This document shows positions 2,580 through 36,508 of a stretch of 37,688 nucleotides of DNA, in pieces. This DNA comes from a virus (Duplodnaviria > Caudoviricetes), in the IMG/VR virus record IMGVR_UViG_3300033407_000066, positions 1-37,688 of that record; one strand, given 5' to 3'. The first letter of the stretch is position 1. Every line of letters begins with the position of its first letter. The notes below the pieces were generated by a model, which made no database searches, was not told the origin of the DNA, and worked only from the letters and a program-made list of their open reading frames with translations. The position numbers and the translations under genes were made by a program.

Positions 2580-2744
2580 ATGACATTAACAAAAAAACAG
2601 ATCACCGAAATTTACATGCAAATAGCAGATTTGCAGGATGAAGTTTGGGCGGCGAAATACGCGGATTTTGACCAAATTAAAGTAAATGAGTTTAATTGTA
2701 AACAAAAAGAGTTGATACGACAAATTAAGGAGTTAAAAAAATGA
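2580..2744 (+). CDS. Small hypothetical protein (MTLTKKQITE..., 54 aa)
   Basis: Within ORF 2505..2744; ATGA overlap with the pentapeptide gene, whose AAGGAG RBS lies inside it. Confidence 0.6.
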   Translation: MTLTKKQITEIYMQIADLQDEVWAAKYADFDQIKVNEFNCKQKELIRQIKELKK

Positions 2745-3634
2745 CTAAAAAAATAACTACAGAAGAGCTGGGTGAAATTCTAGAATTACACAAAAAATGG
2801 TTAAACAACGAAGATAATGGACAACGCGCGAATTTGAGCGGTGCTGATTTGAGAGATGCTGATTTGAGAGACGCGGTTTTGTGCAACGCTGACTTGTCCA
2901 ACGCTGATTTGTCCAACGCTGATTTGAGCGTTACTAATTTGAGAAGTGCTGATTTGAGAGACGCGAATTTGAAAAATGCGAATTTGAAAAACGCTGAGTT
3001 GTGCGATGCGAATTTGAGTAGCGCGAATTTGAGCGAATCTGATTTGTCTAACGCTGATTTGAGCAGAGCTGATTTGAAAGATGCGAATTTGAGTAGCGCG
3101 AATTTGAACTGTGCTGATTTGAGTCAAGCCGATTTGAAAGATGCGAATTTTTCAGATGCGAATTTTTCAGATGCGAATTTGAGCGAAGCTGATTTGATTA
3201 ACACTGATTTGAAAAACGCTGATTTTAGTAGTGCGAATTTGAGCAGTGCTGATTTGAGTGACGCGAATTTGAGAGATGCGAATTTGAGAGATGCGAATTT
3301 GAGTAGCGCGAATTTGAACTGTGCTGATTTGAGTGACGCGAATTTGAGAGATGCGAATTTGAAAAATGCGAATTTGATCGATGCGAATTTGATCGATGCG
3401 AATTTGAACTGTGCTGATTTGAGTGACGCGAATTTGAGAGATGCGAATTTGAAAAATGCGAATTTGAGAGATGCGAATTTGAGCGATGCTGATTTGAGCA
3501 GAGCTGATTTGAAAGATGCGAATTTGAGTGACGCGAATTTGAGCAGAGCTGATTTGAGCTATGCGAATTTGAAAAATGCGAATTTGAGCGATGCTGATTT
3601 GAGCAGAGCTATACTAGATGAAACAGATGACTAA
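2741..3634 (+). CDS. Pentapeptide repeat protein
   Basis: About 50 tandem A(N/D)L(S/R/K)x repeats after the phage-type leader LELHKKWL...GQRANL; AAGGAG RBS. Confidence 0.97.
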   Translation: MTKKITTEELGEILELHKKWLNNEDNGQRANLSGADLRDADLRDAVLCNADLSNADLSNADLSVTNLRSADLRDANLKNANLKNAELCDANLSSANLSESDLSNADLSRADLKDANLSSANLNCADLSQADLKDANFSDANFSDANLSEADLINTDLKNADFSSANLSSADLSDANLRDANLRDANLSSANLNCADLSDANLRDANLKNANLIDANLIDANLNCADLSDANLRDANLKNANLRDANLSDADLSRADLKDANLSDANLSRADLSYANLKNANLSDADLSRAILDETDD

Positions 3635-3714: not shown

Positions 3715-6345
3715 ATGGCGATTCACCCAAGACTTATCAACCAATTATTCGAAAATCCAGAATTTCTGGTCGCACCGGACAGCATAGGATACGTAGTGCG
3801 CGATGTCATTAATATGAATTGGTGGAATACGTGCGGCGTACTCCTCGGCTATAAAAAAAACAAACGCGTAAACGGTGATTTTTCAGAAGTGCAAAAACGT
3901 ATCGCGGTTCAGCTCAAAGAATATTATTACGTGCGGCGTATCGCGATCAAAAATGAATCAAAATTTAGGCAGGAAATTCGTGGATATTTGATCGGAAATG
4001 TTAAAAAAATCGAGCAATTAAACGCATTTTCATACACGACTCGCATGAATCCGAGTCAATATTTCCATAAAAAAGACGGCACGACAACTTGGGTAGATTG
4101 CACGTCACGCGCAACGTATGCAGCAAAATATGTATTTCAAAATGGATATCAGGATTTCGATGGTCGCGCTCGATTTTTAGGTGCATCCGCTATTCTAAAT
4201 GCGATTGAGACCGGACGTTGCGAAGATCTTGGAATATCTGAATATTTTGATGACGGACATAACACTGTGAAAGCCGAAATTTTTAGTCAGAAAAATAGTC
4301 AATTGAGTGTGGGTGAGTGGATCGATAGACTGGGCGTTAAGATTTTGCCGAAACGTGAATGGCTTTTAGACGCGATCGGTCACGTAAAATCAGATCCGTA
4401 TAAAATAAACGAGGCACGAATTGTGGCGCAGGGACTGGCCCCCGGAGTCAACGAATTGTTGTATGGTTTTTCCACATCGTCGTCTGTTAAATTAGCGATG
4501 GCGGTGAGTGCTGCGAGTCGTGCGAGTGCTGCGAGTCGTGCGAGTGCTGCGAGTGATGCGAGTCGTGCGAGAGCTGCGAGTCGTGCGAGTTATGCGAGTC
4601 GGGCTTCGAATGCTTCGAGGGCTTCGCATGCTTCGGGGGCTTCGAAGGCTTCGACAGCTTCGGGGGCTTCGAATGCGGCGAATTCGAGTGACGCGGGATG
4701 CACCCACACCGCAGCAACTGTTTGGTCAAAATGTAACAAGGCGATTAAAAAACCCGACCACCTCGACTACCCTCCTGTTTTTAGGAAAAACATTTTTGGG
4801 CTTGCGGGAAATTGGAAAATCAATGCAGACATAGTGAAACGTTGCAACGTTGGTTATTTCGATCCGTTCTGTGTAGATGGGGAAACTGAATATCTATCCC
4901 CTTCCGGATGGGAAAAGATAAAAAATTATACCAGCGGACCTATAGCTCAGTATCTCCCATCGGGTGAAATCACATTTATAGATCCAATCCGATATATATC
5001 CGAACCTACAGAAGAGGACTTTTTAGAGTTTAATAATAGATCTTTGTCTATATGCGCTACATTAGACCATAGCATTGTTTACAACAATATTAACAAAGCT
5101 GGTCGGCCACTAGAAAAATTGCCATTTATTAAATTTTACGAAAATAGACACATGCGTGGAGTGAATCAAACCAAACGCATTCCAATTACATTCCAATACA
5201 CCCCCAATGGTTCTAATGTTTCAATATCAGAAGAACGTTTGAGGCTGGAAATAGCAATACAAGCTGATGCTCATATCCGAAAAAAATCAAGTACAGGGGA
5301 ATGGGAAGTTATATTTGGATTAAGGAGAGAGAGAAAAATAAAACGTTTGAAAGATTTACTCAACCTCAATGGAATATTACCGAGGGAATATAATTATATC
5401 AGACCAAATGGGAAACGCGACACTGTTGTTTCATTTAAAATGAAATCTATATTTGAAACACCAAAAAAGGAATTTCCCACGTGGTTACTCCACTTGCCGC
5501 AATCGCTTCGTGAAATCTTTGTCGAAGAGGTGATGCATTGGGACGGTTGTCAAGCATCTAAATTATACGCCACCAACAGTAAACACAATGCTGATATTGT
5601 CCAGTTTATGTTTGCATCATGCGGGTTTTCTAGCCAAATTGCATTGTCTGATAAAAACTATCGTGTTCAAAAAAGTTTGTTGACTACGTCTTCTATGACT
5701 ACACACGATCGCTGTGTGTTCATTGAAAAATTCAGGTTTGTAAAACATGCTATTAAATATTGTTTTACCGTCCCGAGCGGATCGTGGTTAATGCGTAGAA
5801 ATGATAAAATATGTGCTACAGGAAATTGTGGACACGGCACCACACCTCTTTACGCCAAAAAACATGGAATTAATTATCTCGGGTTTGACACAAACAAAAA
5901 AGCGTTTGATGAATATCTAAACATCATCAATGAAGAGTGTTCAGGTCATGGAAGCAACGTGAAAGTTCAGCTCCAAGATTCAACTGAATTTTTACCGAAA
6001 CTCGTTGGGCAGTTTGATTTATGTTATACAAGCCCGCCATATTTTAATTTTGAGGAATACGGGGGAAACACCGCGCACTACGATGATTGTAAATCATACG
6101 CTGATTTCCATAAAAAAATAACAATTCCCGTGTTTACAAATGTGTATGAATATTTAGTGCCCGGCGGGACGCTTGCATTGCAAACTGAGAAAAACGCAAC
6201 CGCAAAAAAAGAGTGGATTGATGTCATTAAACCGATCGGGTTTGTTTTAGAATCAGAGTTACTGACGGGAATTGAAAAACAAAAATATTCCACGCAGTCG
6301 AAACGCGATCAAAATTTATTGGTATTTAGAAAACCGAGTGTCTGA
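3715..6345 (+). CDS. Intein-containing amino (N4-C/N6-A) DNA methyltransferase with large N-terminal extension
   Basis: Removing the intein restores motif I YFDPF|CGHGTT; motif IV TSPPYF (SPPY at 6031-6042); LVPGGTL downstream. Confidence 0.88.
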   Translation: MAIHPRLINQLFENPEFLVAPDSIGYVVRDVINMNWWNTCGVLLGYKKNKRVNGDFSEVQKRIAVQLKEYYYVRRIAIKNESKFRQEIRGYLIGNVKKIEQLNAFSYTTRMNPSQYFHKKDGTTTWVDCTSRATYAAKYVFQNGYQDFDGRARFLGASAILNAIETGRCEDLGISEYFDDGHNTVKAEIFSQKNSQLSVGEWIDRLGVKILPKREWLLDAIGHVKSDPYKINEARIVAQGLAPGVNELLYGFSTSSSVKLAMAVSAASRASAASRASAASDASRARAASRASYASRASNASRASHASGASKASTASGASNAANSSDAGCTHTAATVWSKCNKAIKKPDHLDYPPVFRKNIFGLAGNWKINADIVKRCNVGYFDPFCVDGETEYLSPSGWEKIKNYTSGPIAQYLPSGEITFIDPIRYISEPTEEDFLEFNNRSLSICATLDHSIVYNNINKAGRPLEKLPFIKFYENRHMRGVNQTKRIPITFQYTPNGSNVSISEERLRLEIAIQADAHIRKKSSTGEWEVIFGLRRERKIKRLKDLLNLNGILPREYNYIRPNGKRDTVVSFKMKSIFETPKKEFPTWLLHLPQSLREIFVEEVMHWDGCQASKLYATNSKHNADIVQFMFASCGFSSQIALSDKNYRVQKSLLTTSSMTTHDRCVFIEKFRFVKHAIKYCFTVPSGSWLMRRNDKICATGNCGHGTTPLYAKKHGINYLGFDTNKKAFDEYLNIINEECSGHGSNVKVQLQDSTEFLPKLVGQFDLCYTSPPYFNFEEYGGNTAHYDDCKSYADFHKKITIPVFTNVYEYLVPGGTLALQTEKNATAKKEWIDVIKPIGFVLESELLTGIEKQKYSTQSKRDQNLLVFRKPSV
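4501..4695 (+). repeat. 9-bp tandem repeat encoding an (Ala-Ser-X)n tract
   Basis: GCGAGTNNT units followed by GCTTCGNNN units; protein ASRASAASRASAASDAS... Confidence 0.9.
4870..5826 (+). mobile_element. Intein (319 aa) with LAGLIDADG-like homing endonuclease region
   Basis: N-terminal CVDGETEYLSPSGW (block A), TLDH (block B), KYCFTVPSGSWLMRRN (block F), C-terminal ATGN followed by Cys+1; internal LEIAIQADA and VMHWDG motifs. Confidence 0.92.
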
Positions 6346-6474: not shown

Positions 6475-6861
6475 CTATATGAAAATATGCGAGTAATCAA
6501 AATATGTATGCATTTGAGGCTTCTGTGCCTGGGAGAATATTCTTTGCCCGTGTTTTTTGTCGTTGTACATTTTAAGATAAATAGATTTATGCGTTGAAAT
6601 ATTCTTAGCCAAACAAATAACAGAATCGAATAGTGACCATTTGCACGTAGTCGCAAATTTTCGTTCCACTTCGATCAAAAACTGCATCTGTATTTCGGGA
6701 TCTCTGGATGACCATCCGTCCAAATCTTCCGCCAGTCTCCGAGCTGCATAGCGCATGAGATCGTCGTGCTTAAAAACTAACTCACTCAATAACTCGTCAA
6801 GGTTGTGCCCCGACAACTGGTCAGCTAATTGAGATGCATCGAGCGTGATTTTAACGTCCAT
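6475..6861 (-). CDS. Hypothetical protein
   Basis: 128-aa ORF with GGAG RBS. Confidence 0.65.
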   Translation of the reverse strand: MDVKITLDASQLADQLSGHNLDELLSELVFKHDDLMRYAARRLAEDLDGWSSRDPEIQMQFLIEVERKFATTCKWSLFDSVICLAKNISTHKSIYLKMYNDKKHGQRIFSQAQKPQMHTYFDYSHIFI

Positions 6862-6968
6862 TTGTTATTCTCCCACCGGAGACATTTGTTAGCGAATTTA
6901 ATTGCGTCTTCGAGTTTTTCAAACGCATCTGTAATAAATCCGGTTGGGTCATGCACGATATAAGTCAT
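6825..6968 (-). CDS. 47-aa hypothetical protein (not in ORF track)
   Basis: MTYIVHDPTGFITDAFEKLEDAIKFANKCLRWENNKWTLKSRSMHLN; GGAG RBS and ATGA overlap with the last Gly-X peptide. Confidence 0.55.
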   Translation of the reverse strand: MTYIVHDPTGFITDAFEKLEDAIKFANKCLRWENNKWTLKSRSMHLN

Positions 6969-7141
6969 TGTAAAACTCCGCTACCGTATCCGCTGCCGCT
7001 TCCGTATCCGCTACCGTCTCCGCCTCCGCTTCCGTATCCGTATCCGTATCCGCTGCCGCTTCCGTAGCCGATGCCGTCTCCGCCTCCGCATCCGCTGCCG
7101 TCTCCGTATCCGCCTCCGCGTCCGTCAATTTCGCCGCTCAT
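6965..7141 (-). CDS. (Gly-X)n peptide 5, 58 aa (not in ORF track)
   Basis: MSGEIDGRGGGYGDGSGCG...GYGSGVLQ; GGAG-7 nt-ATG; ATGA overlap. Confidence 0.75.
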   Translation of the reverse strand: MSGEIDGRGGGYGDGSGCGGGDGIGYGSGSGYGYGYGSGGGDGSGYGSGSGYGSGVLQ

Positions 7142-7404
7142 TTCAAAACTCCACGCCCGTTGCCGCTGCCGCTGCCGCTGCCGCTGCCGTTGCCGCTGCC
7201 GCTGCCGCTGCCGTATCCGCTGCCGTATCCGTTGCCGTCTCCGTATCCGCTGCCGTCTCCGTATCCGCTGCCGTCTCCGCTGCCGTATCCGCGTCCGTAT
7301 CCGTCTCCGTCTCCGTATCCGTTGCCGTTTCCGCTACCGATGCCGTATCCGCTGCCGTATCCGTATCCGCTGCCGTATCCGCGTCCGTCAATCTCGCCGC
7401 TCAT
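7138..7404 (-). CDS. (Gly-X)n peptide 4, 88 aa
   Basis: MSGEIDGRGYGSGYG...GNGRGVLK; start reassigned to ATG 7404 after GGAG. Confidence 0.75.
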   Translation of the reverse strand: MSGEIDGRGYGSGYGYGSGYGIGSGNGNGYGDGDGYGRGYGSGDGSGYGDGSGYGDGNGYGSGYGSGSGSGNGSGSGSGSGNGRGVLK

Positions 7405-7529
7405 TTCAAAACTCCACGCCCGTTGCCGCTGCCGCTGCCGTAGCCGCTGCCCCAACCCCAACCTGAACTATAGCCGATGCCCGACCCTGCACAATAGCCG
7501 CTTCCCCAACCATCAATTTCGCCGCTCAT
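7401..7529 (-). CDS. (Gly-X)n peptide 3, 42 aa
   Basis: MSGEIDGWGSGYCAG...GNGRGVLK; start reassigned to ATG 7529 after GGAG. Confidence 0.7.
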   Translation of the reverse strand: MSGEIDGWGSGYCAGSGIGYSSGWGWGSGYGSGSGNGRGVLK

Positions 7530-7723
7530 TTCAAAACTCCACGCCCGTTGCCGCTGCCGCTGCCACTGCCGCTGCCGATGCCGCCGCTGTCTCCTTCTCC
7601 GCTGCCGCTGCCGTAGCCGATGCCGTATCTGTAGCCGTAGCCGTAGCCGTAGCCCCAACCCCTGCCCGCGCCCGAACCATACCCGCCGAGTAACAAGCCA
7701 CCACTCTCAATTTCGCCGCTCAT
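7526..7723 (-). CDS. (Gly-X)n peptide 2, 65 aa
   Basis: MSGEIESGGLLLGGYGSG...GNGRGVLK; ATGA overlap with upstream gene. Confidence 0.7.
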   Translation of the reverse strand: MSGEIESGGLLLGGYGSGAGRGWGYGYGYGYRYGIGYGSGSGEGDSGGIGSGSGSGSGNGRGVLK

Positions 7724-8157
7724 TGCAACCGTTTTTCTAACTCGTCGGCCCAGACCCCGCCGCCAGCATCACGAAACTCTGCGAGTGTCATTGTCACATC
7801 ACGTTTTAACCCGCGCTGTTCCAACCATTGTTTAGTTCCACTGCGACACGCTCGGGTTATTCTGCGGAATAATGCTACAGAAAAACGGTAATTCTCAGCG
7901 CGATATTCTAATCGTTCAGCGTCAGTCAGCGGTTCTATTTCACCACGTTTTTCTCGCGCGTCATCAATCGCATCTATTAATGTATCGCCATGAGCACACG
8001 CTGTAATGCCGGATAGTTCCACGAAAAATGTTTTTTTTCCGCTACCGTCATCATTCTCATAAAAAACTTCGACGACCTCACCGCCGGGAGCCGTGAATGT
8101 TTCACCTGCGCTCCACAGTGTAATTCCGTCTCGATATTCTGATTTTAATTTATTCAT
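7720..8157 (-). CDS. Conserved phage hypothetical protein (AHGxT...ITxACxxG motif)
   Basis: CAHGDTLIDAIDDAREK and FRRITRACRSGTKQW resemble a domain I recall C-terminal to repeat tracts in phage proteins; GGAG RBS. Confidence 0.8.
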   Translation of the reverse strand: MNKLKSEYRDGITLWSAGETFTAPGGEVVEVFYENDDGSGKKTFFVELSGITACAHGDTLIDAIDDAREKRGEIEPLTDAERLEYRAENYRFSVALFRRITRACRSGTKQWLEQRGLKRDVTMTLAEFRDAGGGVWADELEKRLQ

Positions 8158-8408
8158 TTCAAAACTCCCTCGCCCCCGACCCAGCCGGTTCCGTTGCCGT
8201 TTCCGATGCCGTCTCCGCTTCCGTATCCGATGCCGTTTCCGCTACCGATGCCGTAGCCCCAACCGTTGCCGCTGCCGTATCCGTCTCCGTCTCCGCTACC
8301 GATGCCGTATCCGCTGCCGTCTCCGTCTCCGCTGCCGTATCCGTCTCCGTCTCCGTATCCGCTACCGTAGCCGCTGCCGTAGCCGTAGCCGTAGCCGCAG
8401 TTATTCAT
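8154..8408 (-). CDS. (Gly-X)n peptide 1, 84 aa
   Basis: MNNCGYGYGYGSG...GEGVLK; ATG 8408 overlaps the upstream stop (ATGA). Confidence 0.75.
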   Translation of the reverse strand: MNNCGYGYGYGSGYGSGYGDGDGYGSGDGDGSGYGIGSGDGDGYGSGNGWGYGIGSGNGIGYGSGDGIGNGNGTGWVGGEGVLK

Positions 8409-8809
8409 TTTGAATATTCTAAAACAGATTTCCACGCTTCCTCAGTCATTTCAGCAATCTCAAGTCCCGGGGGGTTTGGGATAGTAACCGATTTCATAAT
8501 CGCACCAATATGATGATCCGCATCGGGTTTCAATCCGTTCGCTGCAACGTCTGATATCGATCCCGTGGTGTCGCGTGTATAAATTTTCCACAATCGACGA
8601 GTCGTGCTGAGCTGGATCACATTATGTTTGAAATCGACTGCTACTACGATACCGGCATGAACGCCTGCGACATTAGCGCGGACAATTACTGGTTTTCCGA
8701 TTAGATTTTCTGCTATTTTATTTTCCATTTCATTTTCCTTTTTATTTTCGTTTAACACCGCCGTCATTGACGCTGTTGATTCGTTCATATACTCGCTGAA
8801 TGTTTCCAT
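8405..8809 (-). CDS. DUF6948-like phage protein
   Basis: IGKPVIVRANVAGVHAG, RRLW, SISDVAANG motifs; true start probably internal (MENKIAE, AAGGA upstream). Confidence 0.7.
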   Translation of the reverse strand: METFSEYMNESTASMTAVLNENKKENEMENKIAENLIGKPVIVRANVAGVHAGIVVAVDFKHNVIQLSTTRRLWKIYTRDTTGSISDVAANGLKPDADHHIGAIMKSVTIPNPPGLEIAEMTEEAWKSVLEYSK

Positions 8810-8967
8810 TTAACTCCACCTTCCATACATATATTTACTCATCCTTCTTCTCCTTCGGTTCAATCACTTCAACCAGCCTCGGGTTTCTCCACGCGCCTTT
8901 CCAAATTTATGAATGCCATCCACCACCGTCGCCCTTGCGCCAAACTTGTGGGGTTTGCGGAGGGGGG

Positions 8968-9798
8968 TCACGAAACCTCCCGGCTCTGAATAATCTTTGC
9001 GATTGCTCGCTTGGGTTGATCACTCTGAAAAAGCCATCTTTGAAATTGTGCCATTGTGACGATAGCTGTTCTGACAAATTCAGGGCAGTCGGCCCGTAAA
9101 TATTTTTCCACGTCAACCCAAAGATAGAGCATCCTTACTTTATCGGCTGAATGTTTAAGATTTCTCTGAGACCAAAACGAGGTCTGAATATATGGGCATC
9201 GTTTTTTAACGAAGTACTTTGCTTGGCGATGACTCATGCCGTGAAGACATCCGCTTCCCATATGGAACCGTTTCGTCCAAACTGATCTGATGGAGCCCTC
9301 ATTTGCGCCCGGACGGTTGAAGTACCTCGCTTGATCTTTCGGGGAAATGATCCCGGCCATCTTAGTGAGTTCAACAATTTGTTCATCGGTCCAGCGAATT
9401 TGTCTGCAACTTTTTGAGAAACCATAATACTCAGGTCGATCAGTAATGGATCTGACATTTTCTTTTGGAAAGGCTTCGATAGTAGCCGACTGGCCGTGTT
9501 CCCGATAGTACTCCAAAACCTCTCTTACAAGTTCGGGTCTATTTCGATACTTCCCGTTTTGGAACCATATAATTGTGCCACGGAACGCGCGTTTCAAATT
9601 TGAAACAGAAACTCCAAGCCTCTGAGCTATTTCATCCCGAGGAGCTTTACCGATCATTGCTTTAGCTTTTCGTATCTGCTCTTTTGTCATAGTTGACTTT
9701 GGCCGCTTTCGAAGGGAATTTGCGCACACCCAACACCATTTCGCATTCCCGTGCTTCTTTTTGGGTCTGAGTTTACAATTGGGACACAACTTAACCAT
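8968..9798 (-). CDS. Zn-finger plus HTH DNA-binding protein
   Basis: CPNC...CWVC followed by RDEIAQRLGVSVSNLKRAF. Confidence 0.75.
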   Translation of the reverse strand: MVKLCPNCKLRPKKKHGNAKWCWVCANSLRKRPKSTMTKEQIRKAKAMIGKAPRDEIAQRLGVSVSNLKRAFRGTIIWFQNGKYRNRPELVREVLEYYREHGQSATIEAFPKENVRSITDRPEYYGFSKSCRQIRWTDEQIVELTKMAGIISPKDQARYFNRPGANEGSIRSVWTKRFHMGSGCLHGMSHRQAKYFVKKRCPYIQTSFWSQRNLKHSADKVRMLYLWVDVEKYLRADCPEFVRTAIVTMAQFQRWLFQSDQPKRAIAKIIQSREVS

Positions 9799-11491: not shown

Positions 11492-11496
11492 ATCAG

Positions 11497-11697
11497 TTAA
11501 ACCGCCTGGGACTGAATGGCATGTTTCGCTCGATACAAAATCCTGATCTCATCGCTCCACGGGTGTAGATTAATTTCACGATGGCCATAAGTGCATTGAG
11601 TACATCTAAAAAAAAACAATCTTTCACAATCACTCAATAACAATCCGTTGTTTCGTCTAGCAATCACTACACCTGTATTTTTACAATGTTCACACAT
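11497..11697 (-). CDS. Small Zn-finger protein
   Basis: CEHCKNTG...FRCTQC; GGGGGA RBS. Confidence 0.7.
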   Translation of the reverse strand: MCEHCKNTGVVIARRNNGLLLSDCERLFFFRCTQCTYGHREINLHPWSDEIRILYRAKHAIQSQAV

Positions 11698-12313
11698 TAT
11701 CCATTCCCCCTTATTTTTTTTGATTTATTCTAAAGTTAATTATAAAAAAATTTCTCTAAGATTAGTTTTATTTTTTTTTGTTTTAGAATCCAGTTTTCTC
11801 TGACTCTTTTTTTTTGTTTCTAAAAAAAATCCTAAACAAATACTTTTTATCTAGGGGAATAAGAATCATCGAGGGAGGAAAAAAACAATCCCCCCTCTTC
11901 ATGCATTCGGTGGTGAACGCAGGAACCCTAAGAGAAGACTTGTTTTTTTTAAAGAAAACAACTCAAAACGCGGCTTTATTCGGTGGAAGGTCACTCCTGT
12001 AAAAACAAAAACAAATCTCTTAGAGGCGAACCCGTGCCTAGTGTCCCGATGCTATTACATCAAGCGAGAGCCCAGTTGTTAGGTGGGCATCCTATTACCC
12101 CGGATTGAACCGGACGCGTCCTCCAGTGCGCAACATGCTTCCGTATGGAGCCACGCTGTCACCCCTCTGTGTGTCGTTGCGAGCAGTACTCCAACAACTA
12201 TGCTACCTGTCTTAAAAAAAAACAGGGAGACCCCAAGGGTCCACACTATTACTCTCGCCAGAGGCAGGTCTAATTAGCCGCCGTGCTTTAGGGTTCACAA
12301 AGAAACCCCCGTG

Positions 12314-12335
12314 CGTAAATGATTCGTAAATGATT
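12314..12335. repeat. Tandem 11-bp direct repeat
   Basis: CGTAAATGATT x2 in the divergent intergenic region. Confidence 0.7.
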
Positions 12336-12399
12336 TTTTTATAGACATCAATCACATTCTCATGGCATTTATAATCAACACATAAACACTCGATCTTCC

Positions 12400-12442
12400 A
12401 ACCCCGACTCGTATCCTATTGCAAGTCGGGGTTTTTTATTTT
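12400..12442 (+). terminator. Intrinsic terminator-like hairpin upstream of ssb
   Basis: AACCCCGACT-14 nt-AGTCGGGGTT followed by TTTTATTTT. Confidence 0.7.
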
Positions 12443-12484
12443 ACAGCCACTATTCAAATGTTTTTAAACGAGGAGTGTTAAACC

Positions 12485-35206: not shown

Positions 35207-36508
35207 TCACCTAATCCTTGTCATTCCACTTTGCGGTTTTTTTCCAGATAGCGGGAACATTACATCAAACATATAGTCAGCGCCGTCAGAATAGTGCGTC
35301 AACTTCGGATTTTTCTTTATTTTACCTAAACTCACCGGATCTTGCTCAACTGATTCGTAATCTCGTTTTAGTCCTACGCATTTAGTCGGATGTAGTTTGA
35401 TGAGGCCTTTACTGAGTAGATTGTTATGTGAAAGTTGACGGCGTCTGAATGACGGTGCGCGTGAGTTATGTTTCACTTCCCACCCTTCTTTTCTCAATTG
35501 TACAATATCGGGTTGACCTTGAGTATTTCTAGCAACACCGGCGGGGTCAGGATAAATAATAACATTATCAGGGTGTAAACCCCGTGCTCGCATAGCATCG
35601 CTCATTTTTTGAGTATCATAGCCTTGAGGACCCGATAGATGAATTTGATCAAATGCCTCTGCCCGTTTTTCTGGCACGCCTTGTTTGTCGTATTGTACAA
35701 ATCCATAAGATCCTCTCACCTCATAGATATTCCATAGTGTTGCAGTCATCGGGTCCACGTTAAAATCCATACTCACATGTACAATTTGTGACTCGTCTTG
35801 GCATATTGAATCGTCGTCATTATTCATGGGATCATACGCATAGTAAAATCTATTCGTACTCATGTTGACCCAAAGTCCACGCAAGTACGCGTCTAACATC
35901 ACTGAGTCATAAGAACTCTCTAAAGATTTGATATAGTCGGGATTCAAATTTTCTAAATTATCTCTAGTGTCGCCATACAAAATACGAGAGTTTTCCAGTG
36001 GTTTTTCGACAAACGCATTATACAACCAATGCGACGTACCCTCGGGGGTGCCGGATGAAATAACTTGAGGGAAAGGAGCGTTCTTAACTCGGACACGTCC
36101 GATTGCTTCTTTGTAACGTTCATGACTAATGAGTGTGACCTCATTAATTCCACAGTATCCCCAGTTTGGGCCTCTGATTTTCTTCTCAGCAGAAGCAATA
36201 TACAACTTCCCTTTTGACCATGGGAATAGAAACCATTTATCTGTTTTATGATATCTATATCTGACTCTGTTATCGTCTAGTATTTGTTCAAATGTTGGAA
36301 GAACATCTTTTTTGAAATCAGCAATGGACGGGTTAACACATCCCCCGTCAACATTTTTATTAAGGGCTGAAAGTTTTAACAACTTCATTACAAGTGAATA
36401 TGTTTTTCCCCCACCGAAACCTGTAGACAAGTGTAGAAATTTAGAATGATCATCAATCTGAAATATGTGTTGGTGCTTATTTTTTTTATACCTAATTAAT
36501 GCCTTCAT
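35207..36508 (-). CDS. terL: Terminase large subunit
   Basis: Walker A GFGGGKT, GTPEG, YLRGLWV, nuclease SMDFNVDP, YPDPAG, HYSDGADY. Confidence 0.96.
   Translation of the reverse strand: MKALIRYKKNKHQHIFQIDDHSKFLHLSTGFGGGKTYSLVMKLLKLSALNKNVDGGCVNPSIADFKKDVLPTFEQILDDNRVRYRYHKTDKWFLFPWSKGKLYIASAEKKIRGPNWGYCGINEVTLISHERYKEAIGRVRVKNAPFPQVISSGTPEGTSHWLYNAFVEKPLENSRILYGDTRDNLENLNPDYIKSLESSYDSVMLDAYLRGLWVNMSTNRFYYAYDPMNNDDDSICQDESQIVHVSMDFNVDPMTATLWNIYEVRGSYGFVQYDKQGVPEKRAEAFDQIHLSGPQGYDTQKMSDAMRARGLHPDNVIIYPDPAGVARNTQGQPDIVQLRKEGWEVKHNSRAPSFRRRQLSHNNLLSKGLIKLHPTKCVGLKRDYESVEQDPVSLGKIKKNPKLTHYSDGADYMFDVMFPLSGKKPQSGMTRIR

Follow-up and report, generated by a model that had tools for sequence, protein, structure and literature searches.

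Coupled Gly-X peptide cassettes beside a predicted Sm-fold protein and a conserved His/Cys protein in uncultured phages

We examined an array of short coupled genes at positions 6825–8809 of the window, i.e., the whole stretch of DNA that was analysed (37,688 nucleotides (nt); IMG/VR virus record IMGVR_UViG_3300033407_000066; Duplodnaviria, Caudoviricetes). The array encodes, in order along the minus strand, a DUF6948 protein and a second conserved protein, called AHG, together with five peptides (GX1 to GX5) that carry a (Gly-X)n repeat. A first-pass annotation made from the sequence alone had reported this gene order, the lengths of the five Gly-X open reading frames (ORFs) and an ATGA overlap at every junction (7/7), along with the MSGEI(D/E) start of GX2–5 and the GVL(K/Q) end of all five; each of these was confirmed. 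The frame of the DUF6948 gene opens at 8809, and its relatives align from a MENK start at 8728, which is the most likely start judged by that alignment. The features are as follows.

8405–8728, minus strand: DUF6948 gene, 107 amino acids, Pfam PF22253.
8154–8408, minus strand: GX1, 84 amino acids, (Gly-X)n, net charge -7, tail GVLK, no IDG-type leader.
7720–8157, minus strand: AHG protein, 145 amino acids, near-invariant His56 and Cys104.
7526–7723, minus strand: GX2, 65 amino acids, leader MSGEIES, tail GVLK, net charge 0.
7401–7529, minus strand: GX3, 42 amino acids, leader MSGEIDG, tail GVLK, net charge 0; of the five cassettes, the one with the poorest support in run X1.
7138–7404, minus strand: GX4, 88 amino acids, leader MSGEIDG, tail GVLK, net charge -3.
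6965–7141, minus strand: GX5, 58 amino acids, leader MSGEIDG, tail GVLQ, net charge -4.
6825–6968, minus strand: ORF of 47 amino acids with an ATGA overlap with GX5.
7127–7177, minus strand: duplicated junction (cassette end, GGAG ribosome-binding site, ATGA overlap, next start); more copies at about 7390–7440 and 7515–7565.

Glycine makes up 37–49% of each Gly-X peptide. The string GGAGTTTTGAAATGA was found four times and its GX5 variant once, and across the junction a stretch of 34 nt is the same in three copies. The last 39–40 nt are common to GX2–4 and the first 11–17 nt to GX2–5; the cores differ in length and in X, as had been annotated, and their longest exact match is only 11–29 nt. 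Going by this pattern, the common ends and divergent cores are the mark of tandem duplication with homogenised junctions. The 47-residue ORF, which the first-pass annotation had placed in the operon, gave no tblastn relative in the fetched loci and is probably a neighbour rather than a member of the module. The module genes gave no PADLOC match.

Scans for DUF6948 returned 118 loci that fell into 74 clusters, one of which is the window's own record; 1,388 proteins among the candidates scored matched DUF6948 at E ≤ 1e-3. The counting of Gly-X cassettes in DUF6948 neighbourhoods, proposed at first pass as a check, was carried out on the 31 well-flanked clusters (those with at least 1,500 nt after DUF6948): a Gly-X gene was present in 31/31 and AHG in 30/31, so that gene context bears out the earlier view of DUF6948 and AHG as partners of the peptides. 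One cassette was found in 14 clusters, two in 5, three in 6, four in 2, five in 2, six in 1 and ten in 1, the last two counts being inflated by frame breaks; at least two cassettes were present in 17/31. The junction sequences of these 17 differ from phage to phage, and amplification therefore recurs. Nine gene orders were seen among 30 clusters, with the Gly-X genes lying solely after AHG in 14/30. The module is widespread in uncultured phages and is not a singular find, which qualifies its earlier description as a candidate undescribed system; the other half of that description stands, for no paper on DUF6948 (PF22253) or on the Gly-X module was found in the literature searched, although subscription papers and supplements, which lay outside the search, may mention the family.

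Some relatives carry other genes beside the module. Long Ala-rich repeat proteins are encoded directly upstream of DUF6948 in L020 (2140–2946) and L143 (1630–2295). A gene is inserted between DUF6948 and AHG in L005 (3311–3781) and L006 (2559–3029), which, from its motif read by eye, we take to resemble an HNH endonuclease. Relatives of the window's upstream ORFs of 276 and 99 residues lie downstream of the module in L059 (2652–3625).

The window sequence was compared with public contigs from run X1, possibly the run from which the window itself came. One contig equals positions 7535–9400 with 0 differences, and others are exact over 6631–7006, 6988–7149 and 7256–7423. Past 7423, the contig that is exact up to there (depth 10.8) runs on from GX4 into a cassette that resembles GX2 (9 differences, 12 gap letters) and takes the place of GX3; the X1 listing has deletions of 3 and 9 nt around the GX3 region. 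Depth over 7410–7510 was 3.95, compared with 12–13 in the unique flanks, and no listed X1 piece spans the whole array. Because of the divergence at 7423, the low depth and the lack of a spanning piece, the exact cassette set is less sure than its flanks; the array is real, and its exact cassette content probably varies or is imperfectly assembled. Run X3 represents a related phage in which the listed DUF6948 differences (8597–8618) are confined to third codon positions and 6 nt are deleted from GX1. Identical DUF6948 DNA was found with Gly-X peptides of differing length (66/46, 49/69/77 and 28/72 amino acids), L100 and L014 (DUF6948 92% identical) differ in cassette order and number, and such differences are seen even at 92–98% DUF6948 identity.

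Many of the relatives' contigs (L001–L142) start or stop in or beside the Gly-X array, and short-read assemblies may under-count cassettes. The longest arrays were those of L053 (1068–2799, at least nine leaders) and L021 (3754–5103), where the frame is broken in two of eight intervals. Randomly frameshifted relatives had been named at first pass as a sign against the proposed array, and they were encountered in part, with out-of-frame copies in 2/74 clusters (L053 and L021); in L021 the breaks extend to DUF6948 and AHG, a pattern suggestive of sequence error.

The composition of the peptides was assessed from GGN-NNN runs defined regardless of stops (152 runs in 72/74 clusters). Counts of codons, leaders, tails and charge leave out the frameshift-rich L021 and L053, and those of leaders, tails and charge also L144; the Ser-codon count used all 74 clusters. 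Stops at X numbered 0 in 2,652 codons (the repeat units are not independent). TAY (Tyr) was used 626 times as against 0 for TAA/TAG, and TCN codons ended in a purine in 83/479. Serine was encoded mostly by TCN in 22/39 phages and mostly by AGY in 13/39, i.e., the same residue is reached from disjoint codons. The residues S, Y, D, N and G accounted for 2,079/2,652 X codons (78%), and net charge was below zero in 74/77 complete cassettes and positive in 0/77. Stops are purged and the composition is acidic and aromatic, which in our reading of the codons means that the Gly-X peptides are under protein-level selection. The first-pass annotation had argued for selection from the fact that each cassette stays in frame; this is weak evidence, since the repeat unit is 6 nt and slippage preserves the frame, and the claim now stands on stop avoidance and codon use instead.

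A leader of the form [ILV][DEN]G was found in 80/98 cassettes; the wider pattern [IFLYV][NDE]G also occurred in 80/98 leaders, compared with 6/318 background ORFs. The 84 tails comprised 43 of the form G[VIL][LMCI]x (type-1), 25 of the form W.E[VI] (type-2) and 16 others; a [GD][IVL]x[EKQ] ending was seen in 31/84 tails and in 3/123 background ORFs that end in A/GTGA. Two explanations of the tail were tried. That it is a copy of the AHG 3' end held in 4/24 loci (within- versus between-phage p = 0.15) and was rejected as a general rule. That it is a ribosome site only was partly true: 9/43 type-1 tails lie clear of the following start codon, and the pattern is commoner in tails than at the ends of other ORFs that finish in A/GTGA. 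As in arrays of ribosomally synthesised and post-translationally modified peptides, a constant leader (the 80/98 above, but of only 3–7 residues) precedes a variable core; for a modifying enzyme of known class alongside, AHG gave no family match, though it may be an enzyme of some other kind.

AHG had no match in Pfam, PHROG, NCBIfam or PADLOC, and a single-protein scan of viral contigs returned 0 matches. A word-index search for longer relatives returned 0 among 7,997 candidates; the full hidden Markov model (HMM) search did find them, and this profile search gave 345 relatives at E ≤ 1e-3. Among relatives less than 50% identical, the His was kept in 146/148 rows and the Cys in 147/147, mostly 46–48 residues apart; at motif level only, H and G of His-Gly were kept in 146 and 142 of 148, and A and C of Ala-Cys in 137 and 147 of 147. 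The window's group has an extra Cys at 54. The AlphaFold2 (AF2) model (mean predicted local distance difference test score (pLDDT) 89.3) has a beta-sheet followed by helices; the His sits within a strand and the Cys immediately precedes a helix. Compared with PDB, the fold gave nothing at E ≤ 1e-3, nor did the sequence match any PDB entry; against 48,161 chains the best Z was 4.7, with several weak rows resembling the double-stranded RNA-binding domain (residues 24–73), no peptidase family, and residues 74–145 barely covered. Four matches were found in BFVD, all phage proteins of untested function (one auto-named "Lamprin"), and the Atlas look-alikes are hypothetical proteins; 26 distant AHG members shared no common Pfam or PHROG family.

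Among the best 150 of the 345 relatives, an extension was absent in 46, periodic in 66 and of some other kind in 38. The extensions include leucine-rich repeat (LRR) and BspA types, and Gly-X in four; repeat periods before the AHG domain range over 8–23 residues and are most often 20 (P0151–P0283). An Asp-Gly/Asn-type motif lies upstream of the AHG core in 86/150 relatives. As far as these alignments go, the AHG domain is a common C-terminal module of many unrelated phage repeat proteins.

A distant AHG alignment led to 14 viral loci. DUF6948 lies directly upstream in 12/14, the other two starting at a contig edge, and PF22253 is present in 13/14 of the records; a Gly-X arm is fused in front of AHG in 13/14. 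The AHG profiles of the split and distant groups match with probability 98.5 and E 2.3e-15, and by this profile comparison the two groups are homologous. GX1 occupies the place of the fused arm in the distant phages, and fusions occur within the split group also (L057, P0141). After the repeat, all 16 fused proteins (16/16) have a linker [GD][IVL]xx[IFLYV][NDEC][GN], e.g., GIKEING, the pattern having been written after viewing; its first half resembles the common split tail (GVLK/GVLE), and the leader (IDG/ING) is echoed in its second half, a likeness that is a post hoc lead. In a quick unrooted tree, 46 split proteins together with L057 and P0141 form one branch (Shimodaira–Hasegawa-like approximate likelihood ratio test support 98) and the 14 distant fused proteins another. 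Fission is the simpler reading of the fused and split forms, not a proven one. The DUF6948 phages with fused (Gly-X)n-AHG (L150–L163, P0190, P0266) have the same three parts in coupled genes; they differ from the window, where the arm is a separate gene in five copies with an IDG-type leader rather than an FL-type N-terminus, and where the split arm may lie on either side of AHG.

The DUF6948 protein matched PF22253 at 38.8 bits against a cut-off of 27 (E 1.1e-9; 38.2 bits in a second scoring) and had no sequence-level match in PDB. The best structural match of its AF2 model (pLDDT 86.9) was archaeal SmAP1 (1loj_A; Z 8.8, root-mean-square deviation 2.1, 72 residues aligned), and all 8 matches at Z ≥ 8 were Sm/LSm chains. 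The top Foldseek rows were likewise Sm/LSm chains, none of which reached E 1e-3 (E 2.9e-3, probability 1.0); 3by7_A and EDC3 (2vc8_A) each scored Z 6.0, and LSM14-4E-T (6f9w) ranked fourth in Foldseek. The protein is predicted to have an Sm/LSm fold with a long helical loop-4 insertion and a C-terminal helix. R17, R45, W47, R52 and K67 are invariant in 117 sequences, a set that in the model would suit a basic and aromatic surface to which an acidic partner, either peptide or RNA, could bind. For the complex of DUF6948, AHG and GX5, predicted with alignments and scored on GX5, the runs gave 0.01, 0.33 and 0.25 (median 0.25 against a mark of 0.32; the controls were not folded), and the result weighs neither way.

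We consider it very likely that the Gly-X array is a selected, split and amplified arm of a three-part phage module. In outline, the split of arm from AHG would have produced a self-contained cassette (ribosome site, ATGA start, hydrophobic-Asx-Gly leader, Gly-X core and tail), which unequal recombination and 6-nt slippage could then copy and homogenise, while stop-restart coupling would make all parts of the module together. What the arms would do is a more tentative matter, and we put the following at somewhat less probable than its opposite: free arms dock on the globular partners, with copy number setting dose or valency and not specificity. The arms are likely disordered and could bind the basic/aromatic surface of the Sm-fold protein, as the acidic tail of Hfq binds its own core, or may re-attach to AHG by strand pairing. 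The short constant ends would dock on DUF6948 and AHG, and the number and length of arms would tune dose and valency. During infection, such a multivalent assembly would modulate the binding of RNA or of proteins within the cell, to the advantage of the phage.

A number of observations weigh against this reading. The length differences among near-identical phages may in some cases be assembly collapse, and stop avoidance could come from a need to preserve downstream coupling and not from peptide function. GX2 and GX3 are neutral, not acidic, and GX1 lacks an IDG-type leader. Fused proteins begin with an FL/FW stretch in 12/16 and not with IDG, and the tree, being quick and unrooted, does not show which way the split went. 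Repeats of LRR-like and other kinds are capped by AHG as well; the neighbourhoods of LRR-type AHG genes were viewed in two records only (L149, L047), DUF6948 was found in neither, and AHG would accordingly have a role independent of the Sm protein. The RNA pocket of Sm proteins includes a conserved loop-3 Asn and loop-5 Arg-Gly. Position 36 and N85-P86 of DUF6948, which by eye we take to correspond to that pocket, do not appear to keep it: position 36 is Gln in 105/117 sequences and Asn in 2, and N85-P86 is invariant in place of Arg-Gly. The tail is also the ribosome site of the next gene in 34/43 type-1 and 24/25 type-2 cases, a bare repeat ends 7/84 cassettes (6 of these without a following module gene), and the 25/84 tails of the W.E[VI] form are unlike the fused linker. 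A tail that doubles as a ribosome site and is absent in 7/84 cannot be an essential docking strand; on these sequences it is therefore part motif and part coupling signal, and the leader is the better candidate for a binding motif. The constant ends claimed at first pass are thus upheld at the N-terminus and only partly at the C-terminus.

One alternative is that the module needs a single arm, the additional cassettes being recombination by-products that are tolerated and stay free of stops only through operon coupling. The single cassette of 14/31 clusters fits this, as do the 6-nt unit that holds frame unaided, the long exact ends that copies within a phage have in common, and the variation of number and order among phages with nearly the same DUF6948. 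Yet amplification with junctions of its own is seen in 17/31 clusters, later copies retain the leader and a non-positive charge, and four of the window's copies follow the last conserved gene, where coupling protects only the 47-residue orphan. We regard this alternative as unlikely, while granting it some weight.

Alternatively, the array may be a library of decoys or anti-defence factors in which each cassette is distinct, e.g., an acidic aromatic mimic of single-stranded nucleic acid that sequesters host sensors while the globular proteins carry it. Cores do differ among copies (longest shared match 11–29 nt), turnover among close relatives is fast, and the module is surrounded by small non-structural genes. 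Against a library, the chemistry is narrow across 72 clusters (78% of X being S, Y, D, N or G), length varies most and not sequence, and single-cassette and fused forms are common; we think it quite improbable. The first-pass annotation had itself proposed an expandable library of variable peptides, of which the expansion and contraction of the array stands, while the variability is curtailed by the narrow choice of X, a charge that is never positive, the 14/31 clusters with a single cassette and the fused arm of the distant group.

A third alternative makes AHG a putative His/Cys peptidase or transpeptidase that cuts at Asx-Gly, freeing or ligating a fused passenger and acting in trans on free cassettes, which it might turn into cyclic or chained peptides. 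Clan CD peptidases have a His-Gly...Ala-Cys pattern, and AHG shows this at motif level; the near-invariant His (146/148) and Cys (147/147) at a nearly constant spacing of mostly 46–48 residues in relatives below 50% identity, the modelled position of the His (within a strand) and of the Cys (directly ahead of a helix), the upstream Asp-Gly/Asn-type motif (86/150 relatives) and the Asx-Gly of the cassette leader would all suit an enzyme. In the caspase-type alpha/beta/alpha fold a strand precedes each catalytic residue, whereas in the model the Cys of AHG is preceded by a helix; the His and Cys could equally bind metal, given also the extra Cys at 54 in the window's group. Such an enzyme has in our view a slim chance of being right. 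Just as slim is the chance of its wider form, where AHG would be a new self-processing or ligating domain behind interchangeable passengers (LRR, beta-helix types, Gly-X), acting here in trans at Asx-Gly on multiplied cassettes and building chains, rings or adducts on an Sm-fold scaffold.

Programmed frameshifting at the ATGA junctions, giving GX-AHG or poly-GX fusions of variable length, would be in keeping with the true fusions that exist and with the frames on either side of each junction, which shifting by -1 would bring together, but no XXXYYYZ slippery site is present at the junctions, the genes lie without overlap in L052, L060 and L069, and Gly-X lies solely after AHG in 14/30 clusters, leaving this very improbable. 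That the array is an assembly artefact of one repeat is equally hard to credit, for while no listed contig spans it, GX3 is poorly covered in X1 and many relatives break off at the repeat, the cores are unlike one another, an X1 contig covers 7535–9400 with 0 differences, and multi-cassette arrays with their own junctions were found in 17/31 clusters.

The window is nearly the whole of a phage genome of about 36 kb (its first 50 nt repeat at 36,057); the virus record is estimated to be 96% complete, and by family match its genes include those for a terminase large subunit and a major head protein. Among annotated phages DUF6948 had no match and the window's major capsid protein one weak match, so that these comparisons turned up no close relative in culture. 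The host of phages with the module is hinted at solely, and weakly, by two placements: a relative on a 15-kb contig assigned to the bin of an uncultured Pseudobdellovibrionaceae genome, and a second one in an Acidobacteriota bin. A promoter and terminator scan was at chance level (11 versus 9.8 and 8 versus 6.4), and no transfer RNA gene was found in the window. An 876-residue ORF (3715–6345, plus strand) has an N-terminal part with an Ala/Ser/Arg repeat followed by a DNA methylase (Pfam N6_N4_Mtase, E 2.9e-8), which is split by an intein-like stretch with a weak LAGLIDADG match; a pentapeptide-repeat protein is encoded at 2741–3634 (plus strand). Three kinds of repeat protein (pentapeptide, the Ala-rich ORF and Gly-X) thus occur in one 36-kb genome. 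About 1 kb at 11492–12484 has no ORF of at least 70 residues and separates divergent gene blocks; it may be a control region or origin.

The nearest likenesses to the proposed assembly are among Sm-type proteins. According to the portion of PMC11617691 drawn on here, the C-terminal tail of Acinetobacter baumannii Hfq is disordered, rich in Gly and tipped with acidic residues, and it affects RNA binding; the protein thus has an Sm core plus a long Gly-rich acidic repeat. That tail is covalently joined to the core, does not vary in length within the species and is built on GGFGGQ, whereas the window's repeat is Gly-X, lies in trans or on a third protein and is highly variable. A stop separates DUF6948 from GX1, as it does in the relatives inspected, no search having been aimed at longer DUF6948 fusions. 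The predicted fold is like that of Sm/LSm/Hfq proteins (SmAP1 1loj, cyanophage 3by7 and the peptide-binding LSm domains of LSM14/EDC3), from which DUF6948 differs in its long helical insertion, its C-terminal helix and, by our mapping, the apparent loss of the RNA-pocket residues. A pentameric Sm protein of putative cyanophage origin has a C-terminal helix, in the part of PMC3710371 used here. PMC12152347 describes small phage proteins from T4 that are predicted to fold like LSm and to which no wild-type function is assigned; they belong to a T4-like virus family and have C-terminal domains of their own, and the portion cited mentions neither a Gly-X partner nor DUF6948 by name. LRR/BspA phage repeat proteins such as Riemerella phage CRP6_000055 have the same C-terminal AHG...TGAC domain behind a variable repeat; there the repeat is fused, with a regular unit of 8–23 residues in such proteins, and no DUF6948 was found in the record. 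Its annotation as "ribonuclease inhibitor" appears to follow the repeat and not the AHG domain.

DUF6948 is already catalogued as a family, and phage LSm-like proteins are known from T4 in the portion of PMC12152347 cited. The locus adds a third part of the module, with a near-invariant His/Cys pair and no family, and an AHG domain common to unrelated phage repeat proteins, with one lineage in which the arm is separate from it and multiplied; the split, amplified three-part form is a new form of an undescribed, widespread module. Its small separate genes make arm binding, the effect of copy number and the enzymology of AHG easy to test. If true, an acidic tail that serves an Sm ring in trans would be new phage biology, and so would a domain that processes its passengers.

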